Virus record (IMG/VR): IMGVR_UViG_2721755724_000003
Direction: 5' to 3' (one strand)
DNA length: 36,875 nucleotides
DNA from: a virus
Lineage: Duplodnaviria; Heunggongvirae; Uroviricota; Caudoviricetes
The notes under the pieces are model-generated. The model had not been told where the DNA came from and searched no databases. It saw only the letters and a list, made by a program, of their open reading frames with translations. The position numbers and the translations under genes were made by a program. Shown here piece after piece: positions 8,305 to 36,875 of this stretch; positions within the stretch are counted from its first letter, which is position 1; each line of letters opens with the position of its first letter.

Positions 8305-8820
8305 TCAGAGGCCGAGGGCGTTGCGGTGCGCTTCCATCAGGTCCACACCGTCCACAATTTCCACCATGTTGATAAGGTCCACTTCATAGAGCACCTCACC
8401 ATTGATGGTCAGCTTCGCGTAGCTGTTGGTACTGGTCACTTTGGTGGTGTTGCTTTCGCCCGTCTTCCACTCGCCGGAATCCACTTCTTTGTGACGTCCA
8501 CGCACGACAAGCTCCACGGCCTGCACTTCCCCGGTATCGTCACGCTGAATAGAGCCGGTAAAGCGCAGCTGGATGCCATCCACCGTGGCTTTACCCATCT
8601 GTTTAAACAGCAGCAATTCAGTACCACCAATGGAAAATTCTGTGTCCAGCGCACTGTCATCAAGCCCCAGATCCACATCCACCGCACCCGGCATTCCGCC
8701 GCCGCGATACTTCTCATATTTGCGGGTAAATTTCGGCAGCGTCAGCGACTCAACGATCCCCTGCCAGTTGTTCCCGTCGTTAAACAGGTTCAGGTGTTTT
8801 AATTTGCGTGGTAAAGCCAT
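8305..8820 (-). CDS. FII: major tail tube protein (P2 FII-like)
   Basis: 171-aa ORF between the sheath gene and E; P2 synteny and size. Confidence 0.85.
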   Translation of the reverse strand: MALPRKLKHLNLFNDGNNWQGIVESLTLPKFTRKYEKYRGGGMPGAVDVDLGLDDSALDTEFSIGGTELLLFKQMGKATVDGIQLRFTGSIQRDDTGEVQAVELVVRGRHKEVDSGEWKTGESNTTKVTSTNSYAKLTINGEVLYEVDLINMVEIVDGVDLMEAHRNALGL

Positions 8821-8829
8821 GTTGTCCCC

Positions 8830-10002
8830 TTACGCGCTGACCTGGCTGGCGAAATTCACCAGGTACTGATCGGTGATGCGCTGACGCAGCATCAGGTTTT
8901 CAAGTGGCGGCACTGGCGTGTAGTCGTAGTCGATGGTGAGTTTTCCGGCTTTCAGCGTGTCTTTGTCGTTCACCGACTCATCCAGCCAGCAATCACCACC
9001 AATGAGATAGCCCTGACTGACCAGGCTGCGCATTTTGGCGCGGATACCTTCGATAATGTCGCGGGCCAGCGACGGGTTAAGCGGTTTATCCACCGCCCAC
9101 ATGTGTGCTTCTGCCATCGTGTCCATCAGCACCTGCGCCGTGCGGGTGTAGTTTTCGAAGGCAAAGAGCGGGTCATCACTCAGGCAGCGGGAACCCCAGA
9201 AGCGGAAACCGTCTTTACGCACAAGCGTGGTGACGTCGTTCTGGTTCAGCAGACCTGCATCGGTTGCCGGGTCCTGCAGATCCCAGAACACATCTGCAGA
9301 AATTCCGGTGACACCGTTCACGCCCACGTTGGACAGGCTTTTGTGCCATCCGGTCTGCTCGTCAATTTTGGCGCGCAGACCAAGCGCACGGGCGGTGGCA
9401 TATGCCGTTGCTTCGGCATTCAGCACCGTGTCCCAGCCAGTAAAGTCAGGCCAGATCAGCATCCCTTCGCGCTGGCTGAAGTTTTCGCGGTAAGTGATCG
9501 CCTCCTGCACTGTCTTGCAGCCATACGCTGACAGGTAAGCAAATCCACGCAGGCTTTGCGCCACGCTCAGCAACTCAGTAGCTACCGCCTTGGTGTCGTG
9601 GCCTGGCACGCCGAGAATGCGCGGTTTAACGCCGAGCTGTGACTGGGCAGATAACAGGGCTTTCATACCTGTTTTTTTACCTTCAGCAGTCACTGCGCCG
9701 ATGATATTGGTCGTGGTTTCGTCTTCCGTTTCACCCTGCGGCACACGCACAACAATGGTCACGGGTTTTGCCTGGTCAGCGATGGCATCCAGCGAACGGG
9801 CCAGAGTACCGGACTCACCCGCTTTACCGCTGGCAGTCAGCACATCAGTGATCAGCACGGGTTTATTAAGAGGAAACATTTTTGCATCGGCATCATCGCC
9901 CGTGCAGACCATACCCACGATGGCGGTGCTCACCGTGGTAATAGATCGGGTGCCTTCGTTGACTTCAACAACGCGCACCCCGTGGTGGTAATCCTGAGCC
10001 AT
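8830..10002 (-). CDS. FI: contractile tail sheath protein (P2 FI-like)
   Basis: 390-aa ORF upstream of FII; P2 FI is about 396 aa. Confidence 0.85.
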
Positions 10003-10144: not shown

Positions 10145-10717
10145 TCAGGGAGATTTATTGCTCTTATTTGCCGGAAATTTTCGATAAATGGTAGAAACGC
10201 CTACATCAAAAATCAGTGCAATACGCTGTCTTGATTCTCCGGCCTCGAGTAAACGTCCAATCTGTGCCCACTGTTCAGTGGTCAACTTAGGACGGCGTCC
10301 ACCTACTCTGCCTTTAGCACGAGCTGCAGCCAGCCCTGCCCGGGTACGTTCAACTATCAGTTCGCGTTCCATTTCAGCCAGGGCACCCATGACATGAAAA
10401 AAGAAACGGCCCATTGGGGTACTGGTATCAATACTGTCAGTCAGGCTTCGGAAATTCACACCACGCTGGCGCAACTCTTCTATCAGCGTAACAAGATGCC
10501 GCATACTGCGCCCCAACCTGTCCAGCTTCCAGACAACCAGCGTGTCTCCTGCCAATAGTGTCCTGAGCAGTTTTTTAAGCCCCGGTCTGTCGGACTTAGT
10601 GCCACTGATTTTGTCCTCAAAAATCCGCTCACATCCCGCGCAGTTCAGCGCATTACGTTGCAAATCGGTGTTCTGGTCATTTGTTGACACGCGTACATAG
10701 CCAATAAGCATGATCAT
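10145..10717 (-). CDS. serine DNA invertase (Hin/Gin/Cin/Pin family)
   Basis: 190 aa; N-terminal GYVRVSTNDQ catalytic-serine motif, VVWKLDRLGRS, and C-terminal HTH; very close to Hin/Gin as I recall them. Confidence 0.9.
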   Translation of the reverse strand: MIMLIGYVRVSTNDQNTDLQRNALNCAGCERIFEDKISGTKSDRPGLKKLLRTLLAGDTLVVWKLDRLGRSMRHLVTLIEELRQRGVNFRSLTDSIDTSTPMGRFFFHVMGALAEMERELIVERTRAGLAAARAKGRVGGRRPKLTTEQWAQIGRLLEAGESRQRIALIFDVGVSTIYRKFPANKSNKSP

Positions 10718-24199: not shown

Positions 24200-25261
24200 T
24201 TAATATTCAAAATTATTTTCTTCAATAGAGAACTCAATCCCTCGGGATAACTTATCAATATTCACATCAAATGCGATATCTGTTAATTCACCATCCTCGA
24301 TTTCATACATAACTTCAATTTCAATATCGAAACTAATCTCTTGAACTTCAGTTCGTGTGGTTGTCTCCATTGGAATCATTACTTTATCTTCGCTATCCCA
24401 ATACCCATTATTAAAGTCTGGACCAGAAACAGTAACTTCAAAATCTACAGAAACAGAGAAGGTCGCTAGACAATAATTATTGTCAATCTTAATTATTGAT
24501 GGTTCAAAGTCATCAATATTGACGACTTCAAATGAATCCAATTCAGCGTCTTCCCAAGTTGAAACGTTATATCCATCGGCATCATTGAGTTGGGCAATTA
24601 CGTCCGCTCTTATGTCTTCACGTTTGCTTTCGATAAACTGCATCAATTTATTACTTAATTCGTTTGTATGCGTATTGTATTCACCTAGAAACTTATCAAG
24701 TGAATCAATTTGATGAAGATTGTTTTTACCATCACAATAATTTTTTAAGTCACTATCCTCAGAAATGATATACACATCTTCATCATTAACAAATCGCTCT
24801 ACCGCAGCTAAAGTGATTGCATCAGGAAACTCACTTTTTTTCTTATTTTGCCCAAATGGTGGTTCTTTGCCAAAGTATTTATCTAAAACCTCATTAAGAT
24901 CTATCACTTCTATTGTAGCTAATTTGGCGTGACATCCTTTCAAAAAATCATCAAAAACTTTTTGTGCTGCTTCGTGAATTTCATGTTCGTTAAATTGCTG
25001 AAAAAAACCATGGAGCGGTCCATTATCAATACTATTCAAAAGCCTAGCTTTTCTTTGTACTGTGTTTATAGCCTGCAGAGCATCCTTTATTGATTCCTCT
25101 ATTTTACCTTTTACTTCTCTCTCTACAACTGTAGTTGTAATTAAGACTAAATCACCTTTCGCACATAATTCATGGAAAGCTTTAAATGCTACCCCCTCAA
25201 AATGAAGACCAGCCTTTACGTACGTTTGTGTGTCAATAAATACCTTATTTGTTTTAAGCAT
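24200..25261 (-). CDS. unassigned cargo protein, PIN-like N-terminal domain plus acidic C-terminal domain
   Basis: 353 aa, AT-rich; N-terminus carries PIN-like acidic positions (VFIDTQTY, LITTTVVEREV, YIISEDSDL); the C-terminal 130 aa or so are strongly Asp/Glu-rich. Confidence 0.55.
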   Translation of the reverse strand: MLKTNKVFIDTQTYVKAGLHFEGVAFKAFHELCAKGDLVLITTTVVEREVKGKIEESIKDALQAINTVQRKARLLNSIDNGPLHGFFQQFNEHEIHEAAQKVFDDFLKGCHAKLATIEVIDLNEVLDKYFGKEPPFGQNKKKSEFPDAITLAAVERFVNDEDVYIISEDSDLKNYCDGKNNLHQIDSLDKFLGEYNTHTNELSNKLMQFIESKREDIRADVIAQLNDADGYNVSTWEDAELDSFEVVNIDDFEPSIIKIDNNYCLATFSVSVDFEVTVSGPDFNNGYWDSEDKVMIPMETTTRTEVQEISFDIEIEVMYEIEDGELTDIAFDVNIDKLSRGIEFSIEENNFEY

Positions 25262-25387
25262 ACTAATCCTAATAAGTTTTAAGATCCGCTACAATTGTTT
25301 ATGTTTATTTTTTATCAATAATCATACGTAGTTAAGATTATCCATGTCGAAAAATTAAATCAACTTCAATTTATCCTTAAGCGCGCG

Positions 25388-25406
25388 CTCGTATCCCCGC
25401 CACGCC
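25388..25406 (-). other. candidate cos (cohesive end) site
   Basis: Minus strand reads GGCGTGGCGGGGATACGAG; the first 13 nt match my recollection of the 186/P2 cohesive end (GGCGTGGCGGGGAAAGCAT), and the orientation relative to Q is as in P2. Confidence 0.5.
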
Positions 25407-25728
25407 TGCCCGCTTTATGTAGTGGTTTTCATGCACCTGCATGTTCTACGTAAAAGCCCGCTAGTTCTGGCGAGCCTTAGCAAAAACGATCCTTAAACGA
25501 TCATGCGATTTCATGCAGCATAGTCATGCACTGTCTAAGAGAAGTGAAAGTCCGTATCTGAATGACCACTTGAAAAACGAAACATACAGACTTACAAAGA
25601 TGAAGCTCTACTGTGAGCGAGGAACATACATAGTTGCTCTGTAATAGCCAAATTTTAAGCAGGAAATCTCTTTTTTATGACAAAACTATAAAGAAAAACA
25701 GACCGTTTCATCGCTCGATGAAACTATA

Positions 25729-27306
25729 CTACAATACTTTTCTCTCGATGGTATTTTTAATGGTCAACATATCTTTAGGAATACTTTTTTTCCCCTCTAT
25801 ACGTATGGTAAACACAAAAAGAATAACGGCTGATCTCACAATTTTCATGAGTTGTAAGAGCTGTTTCTCAAACTTTTCTTTCTCAATAAATCTCACCTCA
25901 TCAAAAAATCCATAAGAATTATATAAATCAACTAACATGTCTTTCTCGTGAATAACTAACAGTTTATGTTCTAAATCATTCCTCCATTCTTTAAAAAAAG
26001 CAAGCTCACCATTTTTATCATTCAAATCCATAGCAATACTAAACAAACCCAGCAATCCTTTATTATTTATTTTGTTTATTTTAAGCTTTCTTTTTTCATC
26101 ACTAATCCGCCAGAAGTTATGAAAGTATATATGTCCTCTATCTGGTTTTAAATCAAATAATTGACACAGAGCAACTGCTATTTTATCCAAGATACCAAAG
26201 CAAGCTCTAAATGCAACCCTTAACTTCTCAACATTTTCATACAATATTTCTCCATTATACAATTCAGAATAACATACCTCCGAATCCTCATCAAAAAACT
26301 CACTATCAACCTTATATTCAAAAAACATTTTTCGTGCTAAGGAATACTCAGCTTTAAGTCTATTTAACACCATTTCCATTGGCACTATAAAATCACCAAA
26401 CACACCTTCCTCGGTGGTCGCAATAGTTATATTATCTTTAGATGACGCATAACAATTGCAATATAGCGAATGATCAGACAACATTAGATTATTATCTATA
26501 CAAAACCTCTGGTAGTTTGATAAAGTATCATACTCCTCCTGCGTGAGCCTTTCATCTGTACTTATATCCTCTATGCCATATACACATGATTCACTCAATA
26601 TACTTTCGTTGTACTTTATTTTTCTTTGAAGAGCAACCTTCCATGAAGGAAAACATTTCCCTGACTTTATTGCACACTCATAACCTCGAATAACTTCTTT
26701 AATCATTTTATATGTATATGTTGTAGATAATTCATTAAGCAATTCTAATGCCTCAGATCTGTTTACCCACGCCTGAGGAATTGAGTTATCAATAGATATT
26801 GCTTGTTCATAATAATCCATTGATTCAGATATACGATATTGTTTTTTTAATACATTAGCTAGATTAACTATTAAATCAGGGGGCACCCATCCATCTTCTT
26901 GTGAAAGTTTAAACGCTTTCCAGTAATTATTTTTTACATCATTCAGCTTAATGAAACTATCAATATCTGCATTGTCATTAGGATTAAAATCAAGAACTGC
27001 GCTCATTCCATTTGCCAAGTTATAGTAATATAAAGATTCTTTCATTATAGTCAGAAATTCATTTTTATTGTTTATAAAGATATTTAAGCCTTCCTCCGCT
27101 ATATTTTTTACATTACTAAAATTTCCGATATCAATAAGATTTCCGGCCAAATTAGATAATATAATTATTCTATTTTCTTTGATTGTATTTATCTCATCGA
27201 TACCGTTAAGAATATCCTTTACATTTTTATAGGCAGAATCAAATGAACCTGCATTAATAAGATCATCTACGAACCCCATTTTTGAAACAACATAGTTGAT
27301 ATCCAT
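25729..27306 (-). CDS. unassigned cargo protein, TPR-like N-terminal region plus C-terminal HEPN-motif region
   Basis: 525 aa, AT-rich; TPR-like stretch (YYEQAISIDNSIPQAWVNRSEALELL) and C-terminal EWRNDLEHKLLVIHE matching the HEPN Rx4-6H signature. Confidence 0.55.
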   Translation of the reverse strand: MDINYVVSKMGFVDDLINAGSFDSAYKNVKDILNGIDEINTIKENRIIILSNLAGNLIDIGNFSNVKNIAEEGLNIFINNKNEFLTIMKESLYYYNLANGMSAVLDFNPNDNADIDSFIKLNDVKNNYWKAFKLSQEDGWVPPDLIVNLANVLKKQYRISESMDYYEQAISIDNSIPQAWVNRSEALELLNELSTTYTYKMIKEVIRGYECAIKSGKCFPSWKVALQRKIKYNESILSESCVYGIEDISTDERLTQEEYDTLSNYQRFCIDNNLMLSDHSLYCNCYASSKDNITIATTEEGVFGDFIVPMEMVLNRLKAEYSLARKMFFEYKVDSEFFDEDSEVCYSELYNGEILYENVEKLRVAFRACFGILDKIAVALCQLFDLKPDRGHIYFHNFWRISDEKRKLKINKINNKGLLGLFSIAMDLNDKNGELAFFKEWRNDLEHKLLVIHEKDMLVDLYNSYGFFDEVRFIEKEKFEKQLLQLMKIVRSAVILFVFTIRIEGKKSIPKDMLTIKNTIERKVL

Positions 27307-28179: not shown

Positions 28180-30594
28180 TTAATACAGGTTCCGCCACTT
28201 ATCATCTTCCCGCAAACACTGGTTCCGATAGAAGATACGCAAGCCTGCTCCTGACGGAATACTGCCGCCGCGAAGGAGTAAATCGACCTCTTTCTCGCTA
28301 CCATCAAATCCTCTGGACTTCAGCTCATAGACGAGCTGCAGTCGCTGATGGTCTGTAATTCGCTGTTTGTAGTCTTTACGCCGTTTCGGTTTCACCAGGC
28401 GTAACCTTGCAGCCAGTTCCCGGCGCTCTTTTTTGTTCATACTGTGCAGGTAATCGTGCAACTCCTTGTCATCCATGCTGGTAATGTCCGTTCTGGGGTC
28501 CCCATCAGCTGATTTATCTTTCTCCTGTTGGTTCAAATTTTCAGCAAGGGGACAGTTATTGCCACGAGTCCAAGGGGCGCAAGCGCCCTGGTCGGCTGCC
28601 GCCTCCTGAATGTCAACGGCCTTACGAACCATTTTCCACTTCACGGCATGAGTGCAGATCTTGCCCTCTGCAATAGGTGACCAGATGCCATAAATACGAA
28701 TGCCGTGATCGCCATAGGCGGTCGGCTCTTCGTTGATTTCATAAGCAGTTCTGATGAGGTGATATTTGCGGGGAACCAGTACGCCGCCCTGCTTCATGAT
28801 GTAGGTGGCAAAACAACCAGCATCAGCAGCAGCCAGGATTGCATCAAGGCGCGGGTTATCCAGTACCGGCGCACCTGCTTTTTTGTCCCCCTGTTGCCTT
28901 GCCGCCTGACCAGCCAGCAATCGCAGTTCACGGTAAGCCTGACGCCCCGGAATGCCAAAGAAGCGGAATTGCTGAACACGATGCAGAGACGCCCAGGCAT
29001 TAACGTATTCAGCATTATCACGCAGGGATTTCCCCGTTTCCTTGCTGATCTCGCCAGCCAGACCACGCCCGTCAATGTTCTTACTGATGTATTTCGCGAT
29101 GTAGCTTGTTGGCGTACCTTTGCGCGGGTTAATCAACTCAGACTTAAAGCGCGGTCCAGTGTTATTGCCCAGCTCCTCGCGGTCTTCACGGATGGCAAAC
29201 TTACGCAGTAATGCAGTGATGGCGCGGCGGTCTTTTTTGCGCATAAAACACAACAGGTGCCAGTGAACTGTACCGTCATGATGCGGCTCAGCCACCCGCA
29301 CGCCATACCAGCGCAATCCGGCTTTGTGCATCGCCTTACGAAATGCAGCAAACATGCCGACCAGATAATCACTACTTTGTCTTACCGTCGCATTTGTCCA
29401 GGTTGGGTTGGGCCTGCCGTTATTTAGCGTGGAATGGAAACGTGACGGACAGGTGATGGTGTAGAAAACGGCGCAGTCACCGCGCATTTCCGCGATAAGC
29501 TCCAGACCTTTAACACAGGCCATCATCTCATTGCGGCGATGCGCAGGGTTGCTGCTGCTGGCGTTTACCACATCCTCCATGTCCAGCGTGTCGCCGTCTT
29601 CGTTCACCAGTTCATGAGAACGGAAAAACTCCAGCGACTTACGGCGCTGCTCACGTTTATGCATCACGGCTTCATAGCTGACATAAGGAGATGCTTTTTT
29701 GCTAACCAGGCAGACAGCGCGCAACTGCTCTTCCCGCCATTCGCAACGCATCTTCCATAATTTCCGATACCACCAGTCAGCGCACAACATACGCGCCAGC
29801 GAACCCGGAATGAGTTCATAGGGCACGGGTTTACGGCGGTTTCTTTTCCGGCGGAGTTGCTCAAACGCAGGCGGGATGACATCCAGACGCAGGGTTTCCG
29901 CTGCCACCTTTTCCCATGTATTGCGGATTTCTTCTGGCTTAACGTCATCGGTGACATACAAATCGCCACAAGCTACATCAAGGCACATGCTCATATGCGC
30001 AGCGACAAGGGTAGACAAGCGTTTCACCTGATCCTGACTCATTTCAGGCAGGATCAGCAGGCCGTCCAGCCCTTCATGGCTTGCCATAAAGCGAAAAGAA
30101 GTGGATAGCTGACTGTCGCGTACATGCTCCAGTCGTTCCAGACATGGCTTAATCGTCTCACGCAAATAGCGGGAATAAGCCTTTGGCCTGCCCAGGCTGC
30201 TGAAGTATTCAATACGTTGCATCAGCGGCTTGCTGATATGGGAAGGCTGGGCATTGACGTCCGCCAGAATGACCATGTCCGGGTTAAAACGCTGCTGCTC
30301 ATGCGCCAGCTTTGCCCGACTAATGAGCTTATCCTGCTCCATTTCGCGCTGGACAGGATCACGGGATTCATTAAAGAAATAACGCTCCCAGACCTGATCA
30401 CTCAGCGCCTCACGGCGCAGCTGTTCCTGCTCGTTATCGGCAGCGTACAGAGTGATCAGATTTGAAAGCGCAGAAACCGGCGCAACTTCCGCCGGGTCCA
30501 GATAAGGGTTAATGGCCTTTTTCGGGCTGTTCCATGAGAATGCTGCGGCGACCTCGTTAAAGCCGCTAGAGTTGCTCATATCGTCATGACTCAT
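28180..30594 (-). CDS. A: replication initiation endonuclease (P2 gpA-like rolling-circle initiator)
   Basis: 804-aa ORF with a YIAKYISK-type tyrosine motif; position matches A of P2/186. Confidence 0.85.
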
Positions 30595-31448
30595 ACACGC
30601 ACCTCGTACACAGCAGAACTATCCACGCCACGCGAAGGATCAAATCCCACCCAGCAGCGCGCCCCAGAAACAGCAATGATTTCTGTTGCAGATTTACTCT
30701 CGCCAGCCGACACGCCGATGCTGCGTTTTGCCTTGATGTAGTGGTGAGTAAAATTGCGATACAGCGAACGGATCAGGGATGTGTCACTGTTAGAAACAAT
30801 GACCGGATGTCCTTCTGATGACCGATGTTCAAGAACAGATGCCAGGTGATACTGGTCATCTTCAGTGAAGCCGTCAGTGTGATAGCCGGAAAACGTACCG
30901 TCATACGGCGGATCGCAATACACCACATCCCCCGCCTTCAACATCGCCAGCGTTTCATCAAAGCTGGCGCAGATAAACGTTGCTCGCTGGGCCTTTTCTG
31001 CAAATGCGCGAATTTCTTTTTCAGGGAAATACGGATTTTTATAATTACCGTAGGGAATGTTGAAATGCCCGCTCTTGTTATAGCGACATAAACCACGGTA
31101 ACCGTGACGATTGAGATACAGGAAATATACCGCTTTCATGAAATCAGTAATTTCAGTTGAGTAATTAAACTCCTGCCTTATGTTGTAATAAGCCACCTCC
31201 CTGTTTGCTTCCTCAAATAAAGCTCTGGCGCGAGATATAAACGATTCACAATCAGCGGCAACCTTTTTATAGAGGTTGATTAAATCAGGATTAATATCCG
31301 CAACCAGATAGCTGGGATAATCCGTCTCCATCATCACAGCACAGGAACCCGCGAAAGGTTCAACCAGTCGCGGGCCAGCAGGAAGATGTTTTTTCAGTTC
31401 GGACATTATGGCAGTTTTATTTCCCGCCCATTTCAGGATGGTGCTCAT
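30591..31448 (-). CDS. dam: DNA adenine methyltransferase (Dam-like, N6-adenine)
   Basis: Start placed at ATG 31448 ([11 protein letters not shown]...), overlapping the upstream stop as ATGA; ILKWAGNK and DPPY motifs characteristic of Dam-family methyltransferases. Confidence 0.8.
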
Positions 31449-31672
31449 ACAGCACCTCCGTTGTAATGTTTGCCTTTCAGCTCTGCGATTTCCTGACAGG
31501 TAATGCAAAGCTGCACACCCGGAATGGCACGGCGACGTGCTGGCGGAATTGGCGCTTCACACTCAATGCAAAGCACGCGGGACACGCCCGGTGTTTTGGC
31601 GCGGGCAGCACGGATATGACGCTGGCGTTCTTCTTCAACGCGCTGCTGTACGAGATCCATTGCATCAGCCAT
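31445..31672 (-). CDS. TraR/DksA-family C4 zinc-finger protein
   Basis: 75 aa with CIECEAPIP...CITCQ four-cysteine zinc-finger pattern. Confidence 0.7.
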   Translation of the reverse strand: MADAMDLVQQRVEEERQRHIRAARAKTPGVSRVLCIECEAPIPPARRRAIPGVQLCITCQEIAELKGKHYNGGAV

Positions 31673-31911
31673 TAGTGGATCTCCTGCGCTTCGTTCTGGA
31701 TTGCTTCAGCGGTCACACGCAGCAGTTCTGCTGCTTCGACGTGGTTTAGCTGGCGGGATGTGATATGACACGCCAGGCTATCAAGGCGGGCAGCCATTGC
31801 CTCAGCCCTTGCCCGACGTTCTTCAAGACGGGCCTCTGTCAGTAAAATATTAAGCCCTACGTCATCCGGTCCGGTTTTAGTCGTGAGGGTTTCAATATTA
31901 CGCATAATCAA
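31672..31911 (-). CDS. hypothetical early-region phage protein
   Basis: 79-aa ORF packed in the early operon; no motif recognised. Confidence 0.5.
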   Translation of the reverse strand: MIMRNIETLTTKTGPDDVGLNILLTEARLEERRARAEAMAARLDSLACHITSRQLNHVEAAELLRVTAEAIQNEAQEIH

Positions 31912-31972: not shown

Positions 31973-32314
31973 TTAATTCGGCATGGTTAGCCGTCTGGGA
32001 AATAAGCTCACCACTGCACGAAAATGATTCATTGCTTTAATCAGCTCCCGCTTTTCGTCAGTGGTCAGCTCATTAATGCTGATGCTATGACGTTCAGCTG
32101 GAATTTTTGCCATAAAGAATATGGCAGCTAGTGCCCGTTTATTTTGTTCATTATTGATATCCCGTGGATCACGCATATCTTTAATAAACCGCTCAAGCTC
32201 TGACTCAATATTCAGGCCAAAAACTTTCGCCCTTAATTCCGCTATGTGATTAAGTCCATTCAGGCGTTCACCGGGGCTTAATGGAACAGTCGCCGCAGCG
32301 CCATTAATTGCCAT
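31973..32314 (-). CDS. hypothetical early-region phage protein
   Basis: 113-aa ORF in the early operon; no motif recognised. Confidence 0.5.
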   Translation of the reverse strand: MAINGAAATVPLSPGERLNGLNHIAELRAKVFGLNIESELERFIKDMRDPRDINNEQNKRALAAIFFMAKIPAERHSISINELTTDEKRELIKAMNHFRAVVSLFPRRLTMPN

Positions 32315-32336: not shown

Positions 32337-32561
32337 CTATCGTTCTTTGTTCTTACGGTAACGCTCAAGGGGAGATACATTTTTTCGTACCGTCTCTTTA
32401 ACCTGCTCTCCCCGTAAAAACGTCCCATCCTTTAGCGTGAAAAAGTAACTGCCATCGCCCGACAACGACGGATAACAACAGAGCAAATCATCTTCAGGTA
32501 CTGAATAACTCTCCCCTCTGTAACGAAACTGATAAACCACTTCACTTTCCGCTGCATACAT
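32337..32561 (-). CDS. hypothetical early-region phage protein
   Basis: 74-aa ORF with a GGAG ribosome-binding site about 9 nt upstream; an in-frame stop just upstream fixes its start. Confidence 0.5.
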   Translation of the reverse strand: MYAAESEVVYQFRYRGESYSVPEDDLLCCYPSLSGDGSYFFTLKDGTFLRGEQVKETVRKNVSPLERYRKNKER

Positions 32562-32728
32562 TTTGACTTTCTCCGTTTCCTCGTGGTCAATTCAGACAGC
32601 AATTCATCTTGTGAATGACATGGATGCCAGCGTTTACCATCCTCACCCATGATCCAGCCGTGACCGTAGTGCATTGCCGGGCTTTGTTTTACCAGCAGCG
32701 ATGCAAATGATGGTTCTTTCGTCAGCAT
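32432..32728 (-). CDS. hypothetical protein overlapping the previous ORF in another frame
   Basis: ATG 32728 with a GAGGTG ribosome-binding site directly after the cII stop; the C-terminal 45 aa look like out-of-frame basic low-complexity sequence and overlap 32337-32561. Confidence 0.3.
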   Translation of the reverse strand: MLTKEPSFASLLVKQSPAMHYGHGWIMGEDGKRWHPCHSQDELLSELTTRKRRKSKCMQRKVKWFISFVTEGRVIQYLKMICSVVIRRCRAMAVTFSR

Positions 32729-32735
32729 AAGCACC

Positions 32736-33245
32736 TCACAGCAAACCGAATGAAGCACCGAGGCCAGTCACGGTATCAACTGCACTCGCCATCGCAGGAT
32801 TAGCCTGTAAACGGGCCTGCAATGAAACAGCCGCCAGCGCCATCAGTCGTGTTACAGAATTAATGCTGCTGATCGCATCGCGACGGCCTGCACTGGTTTT
32901 TACATCGCCAGAAACCGCACCTGCAGCAACACGCCCGATCTCTGCGGTTGCACTCATGACGTAATGTGGCAGTCTCTCTTTTGCCACCTCATTTACCGGT
33001 ATACATGGCAGGCAGTGAATCTGAGCCAGAAATCCATCAACCAGTGTTGGGTCTTCAGTGAGATCGGTTAACTGCCAGATATCTGACGCAGTAAGTTGGT
33101 GTGGTTGTTCCGGGTTGAGCTTGTTACGCAAGGTTTGAACGTTCATACCTGCGCGCTCTGCCAGCTTCGCCATGTTGTGTCGTAGGGCGAAGGCCCGGCA
33201 GGCTTCATTGAAATGGGGATGTTTTGAAATGCGATAGTCAAACAT
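32736..33245 (-). CDS. cII: 186 CII-like lysogeny establishment regulator
   Basis: 169 aa (the same length as 186 CII) with an N-terminal HTH-like region; position after apl. Confidence 0.7.
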   Translation of the reverse strand: MFDYRISKHPHFNEACRAFALRHNMAKLAERAGMNVQTLRNKLNPEQPHQLTASDIWQLTDLTEDPTLVDGFLAQIHCLPCIPVNEVAKERLPHYVMSATAEIGRVAAGAVSGDVKTSAGRRDAISSINSVTRLMALAAVSLQARLQANPAMASAVDTVTGLGASFGLL

Positions 33246-33277: not shown

Positions 33278-33499
33278 CTAGTTGATAGTCACGTTGCAAT
33301 CAGAGAGGGCATCGATCGTCATCGCAGCAATGTTAATCATCACTTTTTCACGCTTTTTATCCTTACGTAGGCGATGACGAGGCAAACGCCCATCTGCAAG
33401 CATGTCGTTAATTGTGTCGATAGATAAGCCAGTGAGTTCACTATATCTTTCTATAGTAACGTGGGGGGTGATGAGAGTGATTGAAATGTTAGGTCTCAT
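33278..33499 (-). CDS. apl: Apl/Cox-like excisionase-repressor
   Basis: Small HTH protein divergent from cI; start placed at ATG 33499 (MRPNISITL...), since the longer ORF begins with TTG. Confidence 0.6.
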   Translation of the reverse strand: MRPNISITLITPHVTIERYSELTGLSIDTINDMLADGRLPRHRLRKDKKREKVMINIAAMTIDALSDCNVTIN

Positions 33500-33624
33500 G
33501 ATGCAACATTCCTCTTTTAGCAATGATTAATCAGGATGAATACTGATCGTTTGTATTATGTGAACACTGCAAACATACGATCACATCATGAAATCGTCAA
33601 GGTAAAAGTTCACTTGGAGTGACC

Positions 33625-34188
33625 ATGAATTTGGAAAAAGGCGGTCGTGGGGCCATAGAGCGCATGGTTGAAGCCTATGGTTTCAAGACAAGACAAGCTT
33701 TGTGTGATCATTTGGGCATTTCTAAAAGCACCTTAGCCACGCGCTATATGCGTGATTCATTCCCGGCAGAATGGGTAATCCAATGTGCACTTGAAACCGG
33801 CACGTCGCTAGAGTGGCTAACTACTGGGCAAGGTTCAAAAGAAAGTTCACAAAAAGAAAACACAAAAGAGATCGAAAGGAAGATTTTATCAAGCGGAAAA
33901 CTACTTCCTGATGGTTACTACATTTTCGACAACAACTTTTTGCCTGAAAAACTAAAAAAACCTTTTGTTGTGATCGATGGCGCATCAGAGTTTATCTGTG
34001 ATTCGGATTATGAGGATGTACGTGATGGTAAGTGGATCGTTGATATTGATGGCGAGGTTGCTATCAGGAATCTGACAAGACTGCCGGGACGTCGTCTAAA
34101 TGTCGATGGCGGCAGCAGTTCCTTTGAATGCAAAATAGATGAAATTGATATCATAGGAAAAATTAGAAGCGCGATCGTCAATTATTAA
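33625..34188 (+). CDS. cI: 186-type CI immunity repressor
   Basis: About 187 aa with an N-terminal HTH ([20 protein letters not shown]) and a C-terminal domain; start at ATG 33625 with GGAG upstream (the ORF track opens at GTG 33619). Confidence 0.75.
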
Positions 34189-34211
34189 AATTAATGTATA
34201 AGGAAATAAAT

Positions 34212-34397
34212 ATGTTTTATAAATCTATACATATCCTACTTATTTGTTTATTTATTACGTTACCTATTACAAGTTTTGCAAAAAATTATCCATGTTCTGG
34301 TAAGAAAGGGGGAGTTTCACATTGTACATCTGATGGGAAGTTCGTTTGCAATGATGGAACGCAAAGCAAGTCAAAGAAAATATGTTCTAAAAACTAA
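34212..34397 (+). CDS. small secreted Cys/Lys-rich peptide
   Basis: Start at ATG 34212 with an AAGGA ribosome-binding site; signal peptide [23 protein letters not shown], then a mature part of about 38 aa with four cysteines. Confidence 0.5.
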
Positions 34398-34408
34398 GGT
34401 TGCTTCAT

Positions 34409-35740
34409 ATGAATAATGATATGACTTTTGAAAACAGAGATGAGTATAATAGAAAAATCATTGCTGAAAAAATAATAAGCTTACTCGAGTCCCCCTTAAA
34501 AATATCCCCTATTGTTATCGATGGGGACTGGGGTACCGGTAAAACCGAATTTTCAAAAAAATTAGCGGCATTGATTGAAAAAAATGAATCTGGGCATAAA
34601 GTAGTATATATTGATGCATTTACTGAAGATCATAATGATGCTCCCATACTTACTATAATGGCTGCAATAGTTGCATTATATCCAGAGAGTGAAAAGAAGG
34701 AATTAATATCAAAGGCATTACCAGCATTGAGATTTGGACTTAAAACTGTACTCAAAGCTGGCGCTGGGTGGATTTTAAAACAAAATGCAGATGATATTGC
34801 GGATGAATTCGAAGATGCTATTAAAGATGCGGCTAACTCAGCTATAGATGGTACTGTAGAAGCACTGCTTGATGATCATATTGAAGCAAAGAAACATTTG
34901 CTTGCTCTCAAGGAAGTACTTGCTGAACTAACTAGCGAAAATAAAATAACAATTATCATTGACGAACTTGACCGTTGTAAACCAAGCTTTGCCATCTCTA
35001 TCATCGAAAATATAAAACATGTTTTTGACACTGAAAATCTTAACTTCTTGTTAGTTGCTAACATCTCACAATTGAAAGCATCAATAAATCATATTTACGG
35101 TGCAGGTGTTGACTCAGAAAGATATCTTGATAAATTTATAAAATTCACTTACAGCCTGCCAGTGACTTTCACTGAAAACAATTACGATAAAATTTTGGCT
35201 TCGAACTCTCATTTTAGAATGCTATGTAACGAGTCTGAAAGACTAAAAGAAATTGGAGAAAGTAGTATTCATATAGTTCAAAAATTTATCGAACTAAAAG
35301 GCTTGTCGCTACGGGAAGTTGAAACCTTATCAAGATATCTAGAAATTTATCAAATTTTATCTCAAAATGAAATCAGCAATAAATTTATACCAGGCTATTG
35401 CTGTTATCGAACCCTTGCAGTAATTCTTTATTCGTTTGGTCGTGAACTGGCCCTTAACTACGTAGAAGATAAAATAGATGCACAATTAATAATCAATTTC
35501 TTCGGTGTTAATAGACTCCCATATCAGACAGATCAATATAACATCAACATCTACTATTATGCATTATTTGGTATAACTTATAAATATATGCCAGAAGGTT
35601 CTCCTTTACTTCCTTCTGAAAACGATGAAAAAAACAGATGGGCTGAAATAAGTGATTATCATATTTTAAAAGGAAATGCAGGTGTAGAAGACCCTGTTAG
35701 AATATTCAAAAACACCTTAAAAGTTTTCTTGCTCCAATGA
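34409..35740 (+). CDS. KAP-family P-loop NTPase
   Basis: Walker A GDWGTGKT, a YIDAF motif after it (KAP proteins have NAW-like motifs there) and Walker B IIIDELDRC; AT-rich; sits between cI and int. Confidence 0.7.
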   Translation: MNNDMTFENRDEYNRKIIAEKIISLLESPLKISPIVIDGDWGTGKTEFSKKLAALIEKNESGHKVVYIDAFTEDHNDAPILTIMAAIVALYPESEKKELISKALPALRFGLKTVLKAGAGWILKQNADDIADEFEDAIKDAANSAIDGTVEALLDDHIEAKKHLLALKEVLAELTSENKITIIIDELDRCKPSFAISIIENIKHVFDTENLNFLLVANISQLKASINHIYGAGVDSERYLDKFIKFTYSLPVTFTENNYDKILASNSHFRMLCNESERLKEIGESSIHIVQKFIELKGLSLREVETLSRYLEIYQILSQNEISNKFIPGYCCYRTLAVILYSFGRELALNYVEDKIDAQLIINFFGVNRLPYQTDQYNINIYYYALFGITYKYMPEGSPLLPSENDEKNRWAEISDYHILKGNAGVEDPVRIFKNTLKVFLLQ

Positions 35741-35822: not shown

Positions 35823-36875
35823 ATGGCAGTACGAAAACTCAACACAGGTAAATGGATTTGTGAATGCTACCCCGCCGGGCGCAATGGGCGGCGTGTGCGT
35901 AAGCAGTTTGCAACTAAGGGTGAAGCATTGGCTTTTGAGCGTCACACGATGGAAGAAACCGGAGCAAAACCCTGGCTGGGTGAATCAGTGGATCGTCGAA
36001 CACTGAAAGACGTGGTTGAGCTATGGTTCAAACTACATGGTAAATCTCTGACGGCTGGGCAGCATGTCTATGACAAATTGCTGTTGATGGTTGACGCTCT
36101 GGGAAATCCCATTGCAACCGATCTCACCTCTAAAATGTTTGCCCACTATCGAGATAAACGCCTGACAGGAGAGATCTACTTCAGCGAAAAATGGAAGAAA
36201 GGAGCAAGCCCGGTCACCGTTAACCTGGAGCAAAGCTATCTAAGTAGTGTTTTTAGCGAACTATCCCGCTTGGGCGAATGGTCGTATCAGAACCCACTGG
36301 AGAACATGCGAAAATTCACCATCGCAGAAAAAGAGATGGCATGGCTTACCCATGAACAGATTGTTGAATTGCTGGCTGATTGCAAACGTCAGGACCCAAT
36401 TCTGGCACTGGTAGTCAAGATATGCTTAAGCACAGGCGCACGCTGGCGAGAAGCAATAAATCTTACCCGTTCACAGGTGACTAAATACCGAATTACCTTT
36501 GTCAGAACGAAGGGGAAGAAAAACAGAAGCATTCCCATCAGTAAAGAGCTTTACGAAGAGATCATGGCACTTGATGGGTTCAATTTCTTTACAGACTGCT
36601 ATTTTCAATTTTTATCCGTGATGGAAAAAACGTCTATCGTGCTCCCTCGCGGTCAACTGACACACGTTCTGCGTCATACGTTTGCGGCGCATTTTATGAT
36701 GTCGGGTGGAAACATCCTGGCCTTACAAAAAATTCTCGGGCATCACGATATAAAAATGACGATGCGTTACGCACATCTGGCACCGGATCATCTGGAAACG
36801 GCGCTCCGTTTCAATCCTCTTGCAACGCTGCCAAGTGGCGACAAAGTGGCGGCAGCGGTTGGCATTACCCCGTAA
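35823..36875 (+). CDS. int: tyrosine integrase (P2/186 Int-like)
   Basis: 350 aa with C-terminal HxxR and RYAHL catalytic-tyrosine motifs; the att core repeat lies in its last codons; the stop is the final triplet of the window. Confidence 0.85.
   Translation: MAVRKLNTGKWICECYPAGRNGRRVRKQFATKGEALAFERHTMEETGAKPWLGESVDRRTLKDVVELWFKLHGKSLTAGQHVYDKLLLMVDALGNPIATDLTSKMFAHYRDKRLTGEIYFSEKWKKGASPVTVNLEQSYLSSVFSELSRLGEWSYQNPLENMRKFTIAEKEMAWLTHEQIVELLADCKRQDPILALVVKICLSTGARWREAINLTRSQVTKYRITFVRTKGKKNRSIPISKELYEEIMALDGFNFFTDCYFQFLSVMEKTSIVLPRGQLTHVLRHTFAAHFMMSGGNILALQKILGHHDIKMTMRYAHLAPDHLETALRFNPLATLPSGDKVAAAVGITP
36836..36857. repeat. att core direct repeat, int-proximal junction
   Basis: TGGCGACAAAGTGGCGGCAGCG within the last codons of int; pairs with the 2834-2855 copy. 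Confidence 0.6.

Follow-up and report, generated by a model that had tools for sequence, protein, structure and literature searches.

The dam locus

The 36,875-nucleotide (nt) stretch of DNA analysed here (hereafter the window; IMG/VR record IMGVR_UViG_2721755724_000003) contains a Fels-2-like (Felsduovirus-type) prophage of the P2 family, inserted next to ybjL/ybjM in Escherichia coli. Host DNA makes up the left end, as positions 288-2620 encode YbjM and a YbjL-type permease, and the integrase gene lies at 35823-36875. Our subject is a single gene of this prophage, dam (30591..31448, minus strand), the next-to-last gene of the early lytic operon. Profiles, structure matches and alignment assign its product, a protein of 285 amino acids (aa), to the Dam family (D12 class, alpha group) of N6-adenine DNA methyltransferases. 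The gene stands between a traR-like gene and the replication gene A, and shares a few bases with each.

The reading frame begins with ATG at 31448-31446 and ends with TGA at 30593-30591, which gives 858 nt. This start is supported by homology, by the Shine-Dalgarno sequence and by the RefSeq annotation, which agree: the alignment to the Dam proteins of E. coli and phage T2 starts at residues 1-4, a GGAGGTG motif (31454..31460, minus strand; AACGGAGGTGCTGTATG) lies 6 nt 5' of the ATG within the 3' end of the traR-like gene, and the gene annotated by RefSeq has exactly these 858 nt. A TTG start at 31508, which opens the 305-aa open reading frame (ORF) called mechanically, was rejected on the same grounds. 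At the upstream junction, which reads ACGGAGGTGCTGTATGAGC on the minus strand, the dam ATG overlaps the TGA of the traR-like gene (31447-31445) as ATGA. The downstream junction (ACGAGGTGCGTGTATGAGT, minus strand) repeats this arrangement, with the ATG of A (30594-30592) overlapping the dam TGA as ATGA and the Shine-Dalgarno sequence of A, GAGGTG (30601..30606, minus strand; TACGAGGTGCGTGTATG), lying within the 3' end of dam. Two short plus-strand ORFs inside dam (51 and 88 aa) and a promoter-like match at 31018-31045 on the same strand were treated as chance occurrences, because promoter-like sites in the scan were rarer than in shuffled sequence (4 versus 6.9).

Enzyme family and sequence specificity

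The family assignment rests on several concordant matches. PF02086 is matched over its entire length (profile positions 1-253 of 253; E=1.1e-77, 261.6 bits against a cut-off of 22), and the TIGR00571 profile 'dam' scores 326.2 bits (E=2e-97; cut-off 114.85). E. coli Dam heads the matches to solved structures (2g1p, 4gol and others; E=2e-74), with about 50% identity over 257 aa (residues 4-260), followed by DpnM and then T4 Dam. When the enzyme is aligned with the Dam proteins of E. coli and T2, the catalytic motif IV, D179-P180-P181-Y182, is the same in all three. Motif I, which belongs to the S-adenosylmethionine (AdoMet) site, reads F32-A-G34-S-C36, with the phenylalanine and the first glycine invariant and the second glycine replaced by cysteine. 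We take the gene to be a real and intact Dam-type adenine methyltransferase gene of the AdoMet-dependent family. An earlier note, made from the sequence alone, had described a 285-aa Dam-like adenine methyltransferase at 30591-31448, and the two profiles and the match to E. coli Dam bear this out. Its coordinates were exact, although it left the minus strand unstated; the DPPY motif that it reported is present at aa 179-182, both of the overlaps it described are four-base ATGA overlaps in the sequence, and the Pfam and TIGR assignments of the flanking genes confirm the position it gave, in the early operon between a TraR-like gene and A.

The enzyme falls short of the housekeeping-Dam equivalog NF008152, scoring 291.4 bits under a cut-off of 441, and on this score classes as a phage paralogue rather than an orthologue of the host dam. 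No recognisable restriction endonuclease gene was present among the window ORFs that were scanned, and the neighbours of dam are phage early genes. On these two observations we regard the enzyme as an orphan methylase; its best PADLOC match is likewise 'orphan methyltransferase' (oMTase, E=2e-112).

Which sequence would such an enzyme methylate? The contacts of E. coli Dam with GATC are known in detail: the fourth base pair is recognised at its guanine by R124, the third by L122 and P134 and the first by K9 and Y138; Y119 intercalates, and N120 makes a base hydrogen bond (PMC4417163). Six of these seven residues are identical in the prophage enzyme, by alignment with the E. coli and T2 proteins (K9=K6, Y119=Y117, L122=L120, R124=R122, P134=P132 and Y138=Y136, E. 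coli numbering first). The sole difference is at N120, which is R118 in the prophage Dam and a serine in the GATC-specific T2 Dam. The target is almost certainly GATC, as for host Dam; we infer this strongly, rather than demonstrate it, from the conserved contact residues, the roughly 50% identity to E. coli Dam and the existence of a 96%-identical protein named 'retron EC67 DNA adenine methylase'.

A relaxed or different specificity, in which GATC is not the target or not the only one and the enzyme serves as a broad anti-restriction methylase, appears very unlikely. It could draw on the replacements N120 to R118 and R137 to N135 relative to E. coli Dam, on the deviating motif I and on experiments showing that prophage adenine methylases of another family are very relaxed (PMC7556043). 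Against these stand the retention of all the residues that discriminate GATC (R124, L122, P134, Y119, K9 and Y138 of E. coli Dam), the fact that the identity to E. coli Dam extends across the whole catalytic and DNA-binding region, and the publication of the near-identical enzyme of the retron-Ec67 prophage as a Dam function, to go by the title cited in PMC7826664.

Operon context

The early operon, on the minus strand, consists in order of an Apl/Cox-like gene, cII, a Fil-like gene, a 74-aa ORF, a DUF5347 gene, a DUF2732 gene, the traR-like gene, dam and A. The Apl/Cox-like first gene (33278..33499, minus strand) encodes 73 aa from ATG 33499; it is a homologue of 'ORFA in retron EC67', and the same 222-nt gene is found in the relatives. 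Near the operon start lies a cII gene of the 186 type (32736..33245, minus strand; PF06892, E=9e-43), and further along on the same strand are the DUF5347 gene (31973..32314; PF17282, E=4e-33) and the DUF2732 gene (31672..31911; PF10809, E=8e-29), a homologue of P2 orf80 and 186 orf79. The traR-like gene (31445..31672, minus strand) encodes a TraR/DksA-type C4 zinc-finger protein of 75 aa (PF01258, E=3e-11; TIGR02419, 65.8 bits against a cut-off of 59.7), and A (28180..30594, minus strand) encodes the 804-aa rolling-circle nickase (PF05840, E=2e-127). Divergent from the operon is the gene for a 186-type CI repressor (33619..34188, plus strand; PF07022, E=3e-33; PF16452, E=6e-29), and between cI and the operon a consensus scan places a candidate pR-like sigma-70 promoter, TTGACG-17-TATGTT (33572..33600, minus strand). 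The 186/Fels-2-type order (divergent cI, then apl-like, cII, fil, DUF2732 and traR-like genes and A on one strand) is shared with the prophage of E. coli PSS-12 and with RE-2010, Fels-2 and 186.

The consensus scan returned no promoter-like site on the minus strand between cII and dam. With a CI-repressed lytic operon and no promoter-like site of its own, dam is expected to be silent in the lysogen and to be made early after induction or infection. Its translation is probably tied to that of its neighbours as well. The ATGA overlaps with a Shine-Dalgarno sequence at both junctions argue for coupling of dam to the traR-like gene and of A to dam, and there is a precedent in 186: according to its record, A appears to depend for its translation on ribosomes reaching the end of the preceding gene, orf84, and a terminator just inside A is expected to be active when A is untranslated.

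Control of the replication origin through GATC was considered and rejected. Alignment to the A genes of P2 and 186 maps the equivalent of ori near 28570, where the closest GATC sites are found at distances of 87 and 137 nt and none falls in the core; the GATC near the 186 ori is not conserved.

Several further features of the operon are recorded here as observations. Within the 95-base-pair intergenic switch region between cI and the apl-like gene there are two GATC sites (33545-33582, minus strand), against about 0.3 expected by density, and one of them immediately precedes the -10 hexamer of the candidate pR-like promoter (TGATCGTATGTT). The 74-aa ORF (32337-32561, minus strand), between the Fil-like and DUF5347 genes, is extra in comparison with RE-2010 and PSS-12 and has no Pfam match; a similar ORF, also of 74 aa, is present in locus L082 of our comparison set. 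A terminator-like hairpin is located at 32471-32452. The Fil-like reading frame stays open for 108 aa, versus about 66 in RE-2010 and PSS-12 (window 32337-32758, minus strand).

Occurrence of the gene

The same gene in the same position has been on record since 1990, and the enzyme family, its position and its distribution are already known. The novelty implied by the earlier note thus does not hold: the gene is long known from the retron-Ec67 prophage (1990) and from Fels-2 (STM2730), and it is very common. Two complete E. coli genomes contain the 858-nt gene at 100% identity; the identical copy in PSS-12 resides in a prophage adjoining rcdA (ybjK). About a quarter of complete E. coli genomes (1238 of 5426) carry dam, mostly at 95-99% identity, and the copies are always annotated as 'DNA adenine methylase' between a 'TraR/DksA family transcriptional regulator' and a 'replication endonuclease'. 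In the protein collection the exact protein occurs on 127 contigs. A protein named 'retron EC67 DNA adenine methylase', also of 285 aa, is 96% identical to the prophage Dam, and the record of Fels-2 STM2730 notes similarity to a protein of that name. The title of Hsu et al. 1990 names a Dam methylase function of the retron-Ec67 prophage, and Dodd & Egan 1996 is cited for the location of the retron in a 186-related prophage (both as cited in PMC7826664).

Some database proteins (P0008, P0009, P0081, P0051 and P0057) fuse Dam to a gpD-like (PF05954) or a gpA (PF05840) segment, and in clustering at 90% identity the exact Dam sequence falls into a cluster represented by an 804-aa replication endonuclease. 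Such fusions are probably prophage deletion junctions or read-through gene calls, chaining the clustering.

A variable slot upstream of A

The earlier note suggested that neither P2 nor 186 encodes this gene, and this proved correct: no methyltransferase is annotated in either genome, and a tblastn search of the two complete genomes with the prophage Dam gave nothing better than E=0.4. The corresponding slot holds unrelated genes in both, which like dam lie directly upstream of A and overlap it. In P2 orf83 (DUF5405) fills the space between orf82, the zinc-finger gene, and A, and in 186 the slot contains exonuclease-like, DUF5405 and PAPS-reductase-like (orf84) genes (CP82-CP84). PsP3 does not carry this Dam either: its slot holds an unrelated 173-aa gene, and PsP3 is poor in GATC.

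We examined 80 viral-contig loci with a Fels-2-type A (77-99% identity), 75 of them at least 8 kilobases (kb) long. Dam ends at the start of A, or within a few bases of it, in 66 of these 75. The traR-like gene abuts A directly in eight Dam-less loci of this type; of the other Dam-less loci, one has a DUF3850/ASCH-like gene, one has a PAPS-reductase-like gene and one is cut off upstream. Dam was found in none of the 77 loci with a P2-type A and in none of the 76 with a 186-type A. A second, species-diverse set, with one genome per species, comprised 73 loci from prophages of Enterobacterales, in which D12-class Dam genes were sought on the same strand from 4.5 kb upstream to 0.9 kb past the start of the A match. 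Thirty of the 73 have a D12-class Dam just upstream of A, and the carriers include several lineages whose A is only 31-43% identical and whose Dam is only 44-56% identical. Dam at this slot is widespread, and is probably either old or repeatedly exchanged.

Cargo thus varies at the slot between the traR-like gene and A in the early operon of P2-like phages, and the occupant is likely to be translated in step with the replication initiator. Across P2-like phages we observed Dam, no gene at all, DUF3850/ASCH-like, PAPS-reductase-like, RNase T-type exonuclease and DUF5405 genes in it; examples are found in loci L075 (6105-6578), L084 (296-1342), L313 (8829-9842), L290 (8621-9328) and L004 (3391-5248). 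A cytosine methyltransferase neighbours A in the record of Salmonella phage SI7. Upstream of A in a Dam-less, GATC-poor (0.42) Kluyvera prophage (L288) there is an ORF of 276 aa (8778-9608, plus strand) that matches no Pfam family.

Such variability might suggest that dam is a mere passenger, a gene with no present function that is decaying in its slot, and the eight Fels-2-type loci in which the slot is empty, as well as the other genes present in further loci and in P2 and 186, fit this notion. We consider it highly improbable. In many genera there are full-length homologues at 60-98% identity in which every motif is retained, and among distant P2-like lineages the position is taken by divergent Dam-family genes (44-56% identity), a pattern that speaks for selection rather than drift.

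GATC content and Dam carriage

The prophage part of the window contains 118 GATC sites, or 3.5 per kb, and the ratio of observed to expected sites, obtained from a second-order Markov estimate, is 0.74. Fels-2 has a similar ratio of 0.76. The Dam-less relatives are strongly depleted: P2 has 25 GATC sites in 33.6 kb (ratio about 0.2), 186 has 14 in 30.6 kb (about 0.13), and PsP3 has a ratio of 0.22. The same division appears among the viral loci, where the median ratio is 0.80 for a Fels-2-type A with Dam, 0.25 for the 77 loci with a P2-type A and no Dam, and 0.34 for the 76 loci with a 186-type A and no Dam. When only the A genes are pooled, the ratio is 0.88 for the Fels-2 type with Dam, 0.03 for the P2 type and 0.32 for the 186 type. 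Among 80 P2-type A genes the median number of GATC sites is zero in 2.3 kb. Loci with depleted GATC (ratios 0.1-0.35) are L003 and L005 (P2), L004 and L006 (186) and L008 (PsP3), with others within L089-L248.

For the species-diverse set we compared A together with the 10 kb downstream, where the median ratio is 0.82 with Dam versus 0.54 without it (Mann-Whitney p=1e-5, not phylogenetically corrected). Within every A-protein cluster that mixes carriers and non-carriers the difference in GATC ratio is in favour of the carriers; the values lie between 0.02 and 0.45, with the larger ones in the looser clusters.

Do other methylases preserve GATC in the Dam-less prophages? A methylase outside the D12 class located upstream of A was considered as an explanation and rejected. 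When the upstream-of-A ORFs of the 43 Dam-less loci were clustered and representatives compared with Pfam, no clear methylase emerged in this region, the one covered by the search; the ORFs found there encode CII, DUF5347, PAPS reductase-like, exonuclease and DUF3850/ASCH proteins.

Additional prophage genes

Between cI and int (34194-35740, plus strand) lies a gene for a 446-aa KAP-family P-loop NTPase (PF07693, E=4e-51), preceded by an ORF of 67 aa whose N-terminus is hydrophobic. The match of the NTPase to PDC-S20, a candidate defence family of PADLOC, covers nearly the full length (E=1e-171), and the gene looks like defence cargo expressed in the lysogen; relatives have different genes at this site. 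A two-gene cargo block between the portal gene and the DinI/tum region (24200-27306, minus strand) encodes two proteins, one of 525 aa that has an LA2681-like HEPN domain (PF18733, E=2e-38) and one of 353 aa that has a PIN_12 domain (PF16289, E=2e-25). A gene for a Cin/Gin-type serine DNA invertase (10145-10717, minus strand; PF00239, E=1e-52) is located among the tail-fibre genes, as in Fels-2, which suggests an invertible tail-fibre segment.

Discussion

The specificity, the timing of expression, the translational coupling and the role that we infer for the prophage Dam combine into a picture which we consider probable, namely that this orphan enzyme keeps the DNA of the fast-replicating phage fully methylated at GATC during lytic growth. 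The gene would be expressed only after infection or induction, from the CI-repressed early operon, and the four-base overlaps would ensure that the methylase and the replication initiator A appear together. Rolling-circle replication is envisaged to outrun the small pool of host Dam, and the phage enzyme would then keep the progeny DNA fully methylated at GATC. Such DNA would escape nicking by MutH in mismatch repair and, once exported, would resist methylation-sensitive restriction enzymes that cut GATC in the next host. A lineage with Dam could carry a near-normal number of GATC sites, and Dam-less relatives would have purged theirs. The proposal fits a published hypothesis according to which the DNA of fast-replicating phages is under-methylated and GATC is counter-selected through MutH (PMC5014478, citing McClelland 1984 and Deschavanne & Radman 1991); it was put forward for GATC avoidance in enterobacteriophages generally (PMC5014478). 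Our support for the proposed role comes from the depletion of GATC in Dam-less P2-like phages, from which the prophage and its Dam-carrying relatives are exempt.

Could the enzyme instead act mainly on the host chromosome? In a takeover version of this proposal, excess Dam would shorten the hemimethylated state and so disturb the SeqA/oriC sequestration and the strand discrimination of mismatch repair; in a version amounting to lysogenic conversion, leaky expression in the lysogen would alter GATC-dependent host regulation. There are circumstances in its favour, as 186 has the host-directed genes fil and dhr in the same operon, over-production of Dam is reported to give a mutator phenotype (PMC5014478), and Dam methylation is reported to favour the excision of SopE-phi (PMC7380047), whose A gene is related. 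We nevertheless consider a host-directed role unlikely. Steady expression in the lysogen is not expected from a CI-repressed operon with no promoter-like site belonging to dam, the host is already fully methylated at GATC, and the retention of GATC in lineages with Dam and its loss in those without would go unexplained. The earlier note had suggested, in general terms for phage-borne Dam-like enzymes, protection against restriction or a change in GATC-dependent host regulation, and the latter, if it is to act at the lysogen stage, is the less likely half of that remark given the position of dam in a CI-repressed lytic operon.

Several observations weigh against the proposal that the prophage Dam protects the replicating phage DNA. 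The host already has a Dam, and the added benefit of a phage-borne one is assumed; a review-type statement calls the function of phage Dam 'still not well understood'. Motif I of the enzyme (F-A-G-S-C) departs from the textbook F-x-G-x-G, a deviation that is probably tolerated, since T2 Dam also lacks the second glycine and is active with a leucine there. The link between GATC and Dam is partial: Dam-less loci of the Fels-2 type show no depletion of GATC (0.78 for the whole locus, 0.96 for A), and ratios of 0.8-1.0, close to expectation, are found in several prophages of other lineages that have no Dam. The comparison moreover ignores phylogeny and includes few lineages, so that the effective sample is small, and it counts only D12-class Dam genes; GATC methylases of other classes exist in phages (PMC7556043). 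The Dam-less loci with normal GATC could reflect recent loss of the gene, host DNA at the ends of the loci, or GATC methylases of other classes encoded elsewhere in the genome.

The broader generalization is that a Dam gene directly upstream of A frees the genomes of P2-like phages of Enterobacterales from selection against GATC, and that the gene has been gained or exchanged at this slot in several lineages. We regard the case for it as evenly balanced. If true, the family would constitute a natural experiment supporting the old hypothesis of GATC avoidance through under-methylation and MutH. We found no paper that states a link between Dam and GATC for the P2-like phage family; such a link would extend an existing hypothesis rather than define a new kind of system. 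As a gene finding, dam adds little, being common and correctly annotated. Its modest interest lies in two points, the varying cargo of a slot whose occupant is likely to be translated together with the replication initiator, and the fact that Dam carriage tracks GATC content. The second offers a simple and testable case in which to study the advantage that a phage draws from its own copy of a host methylase.

Comparison with known systems

How does the prophage enzyme compare with the known Dam methylases? It shares with E. coli Dam (2g1p, 4gol) the fold family, the catalytic DPPY, about half of its residues and six of the seven GATC contacts, but it is phage-borne, sits in a repressed lytic operon, and differs in a C-terminal tail of about 25 aa and in the N120R and R137N changes. 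The Dam proteins of T2 and T4 are likewise phage-encoded, GATC-specific members of the D12 class, with the invariant arginine (R122 here), P132 and DPPY in common; their identity to the prophage Dam is, however, only 23%, and T2 and T4 are virulent phages with modified DNA.

Much closer is the Dam of the retron-Ec67 prophage (M.Eco67Dam), which is also encoded on a 186-related prophage and is separated from the enzyme of the window by few substitutions. A functional test of it was reportedly the subject of the 1990 work of Hsu, Inouye and Inouye (PNAS 87:9454), to judge by its title. The window differs from that prophage in having no retron, with the HEPN-domain and PIN-domain genes near the portal gene instead.

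The traR-like, dam and A genes stand in the same order with the same overlaps in Fels-2, whose STM2730 is 74% identical in amino acids. The same slot and overlaps are present in Salmonella phage RE-2010 (gp10; Felsduovirus), at 97% nucleotide identity, and in dozens of P2-like phages of Klebsiella such as 4LV2017, at 96%. What varies between these phages and the prophage of the window is the immunity region and the cargo genes.

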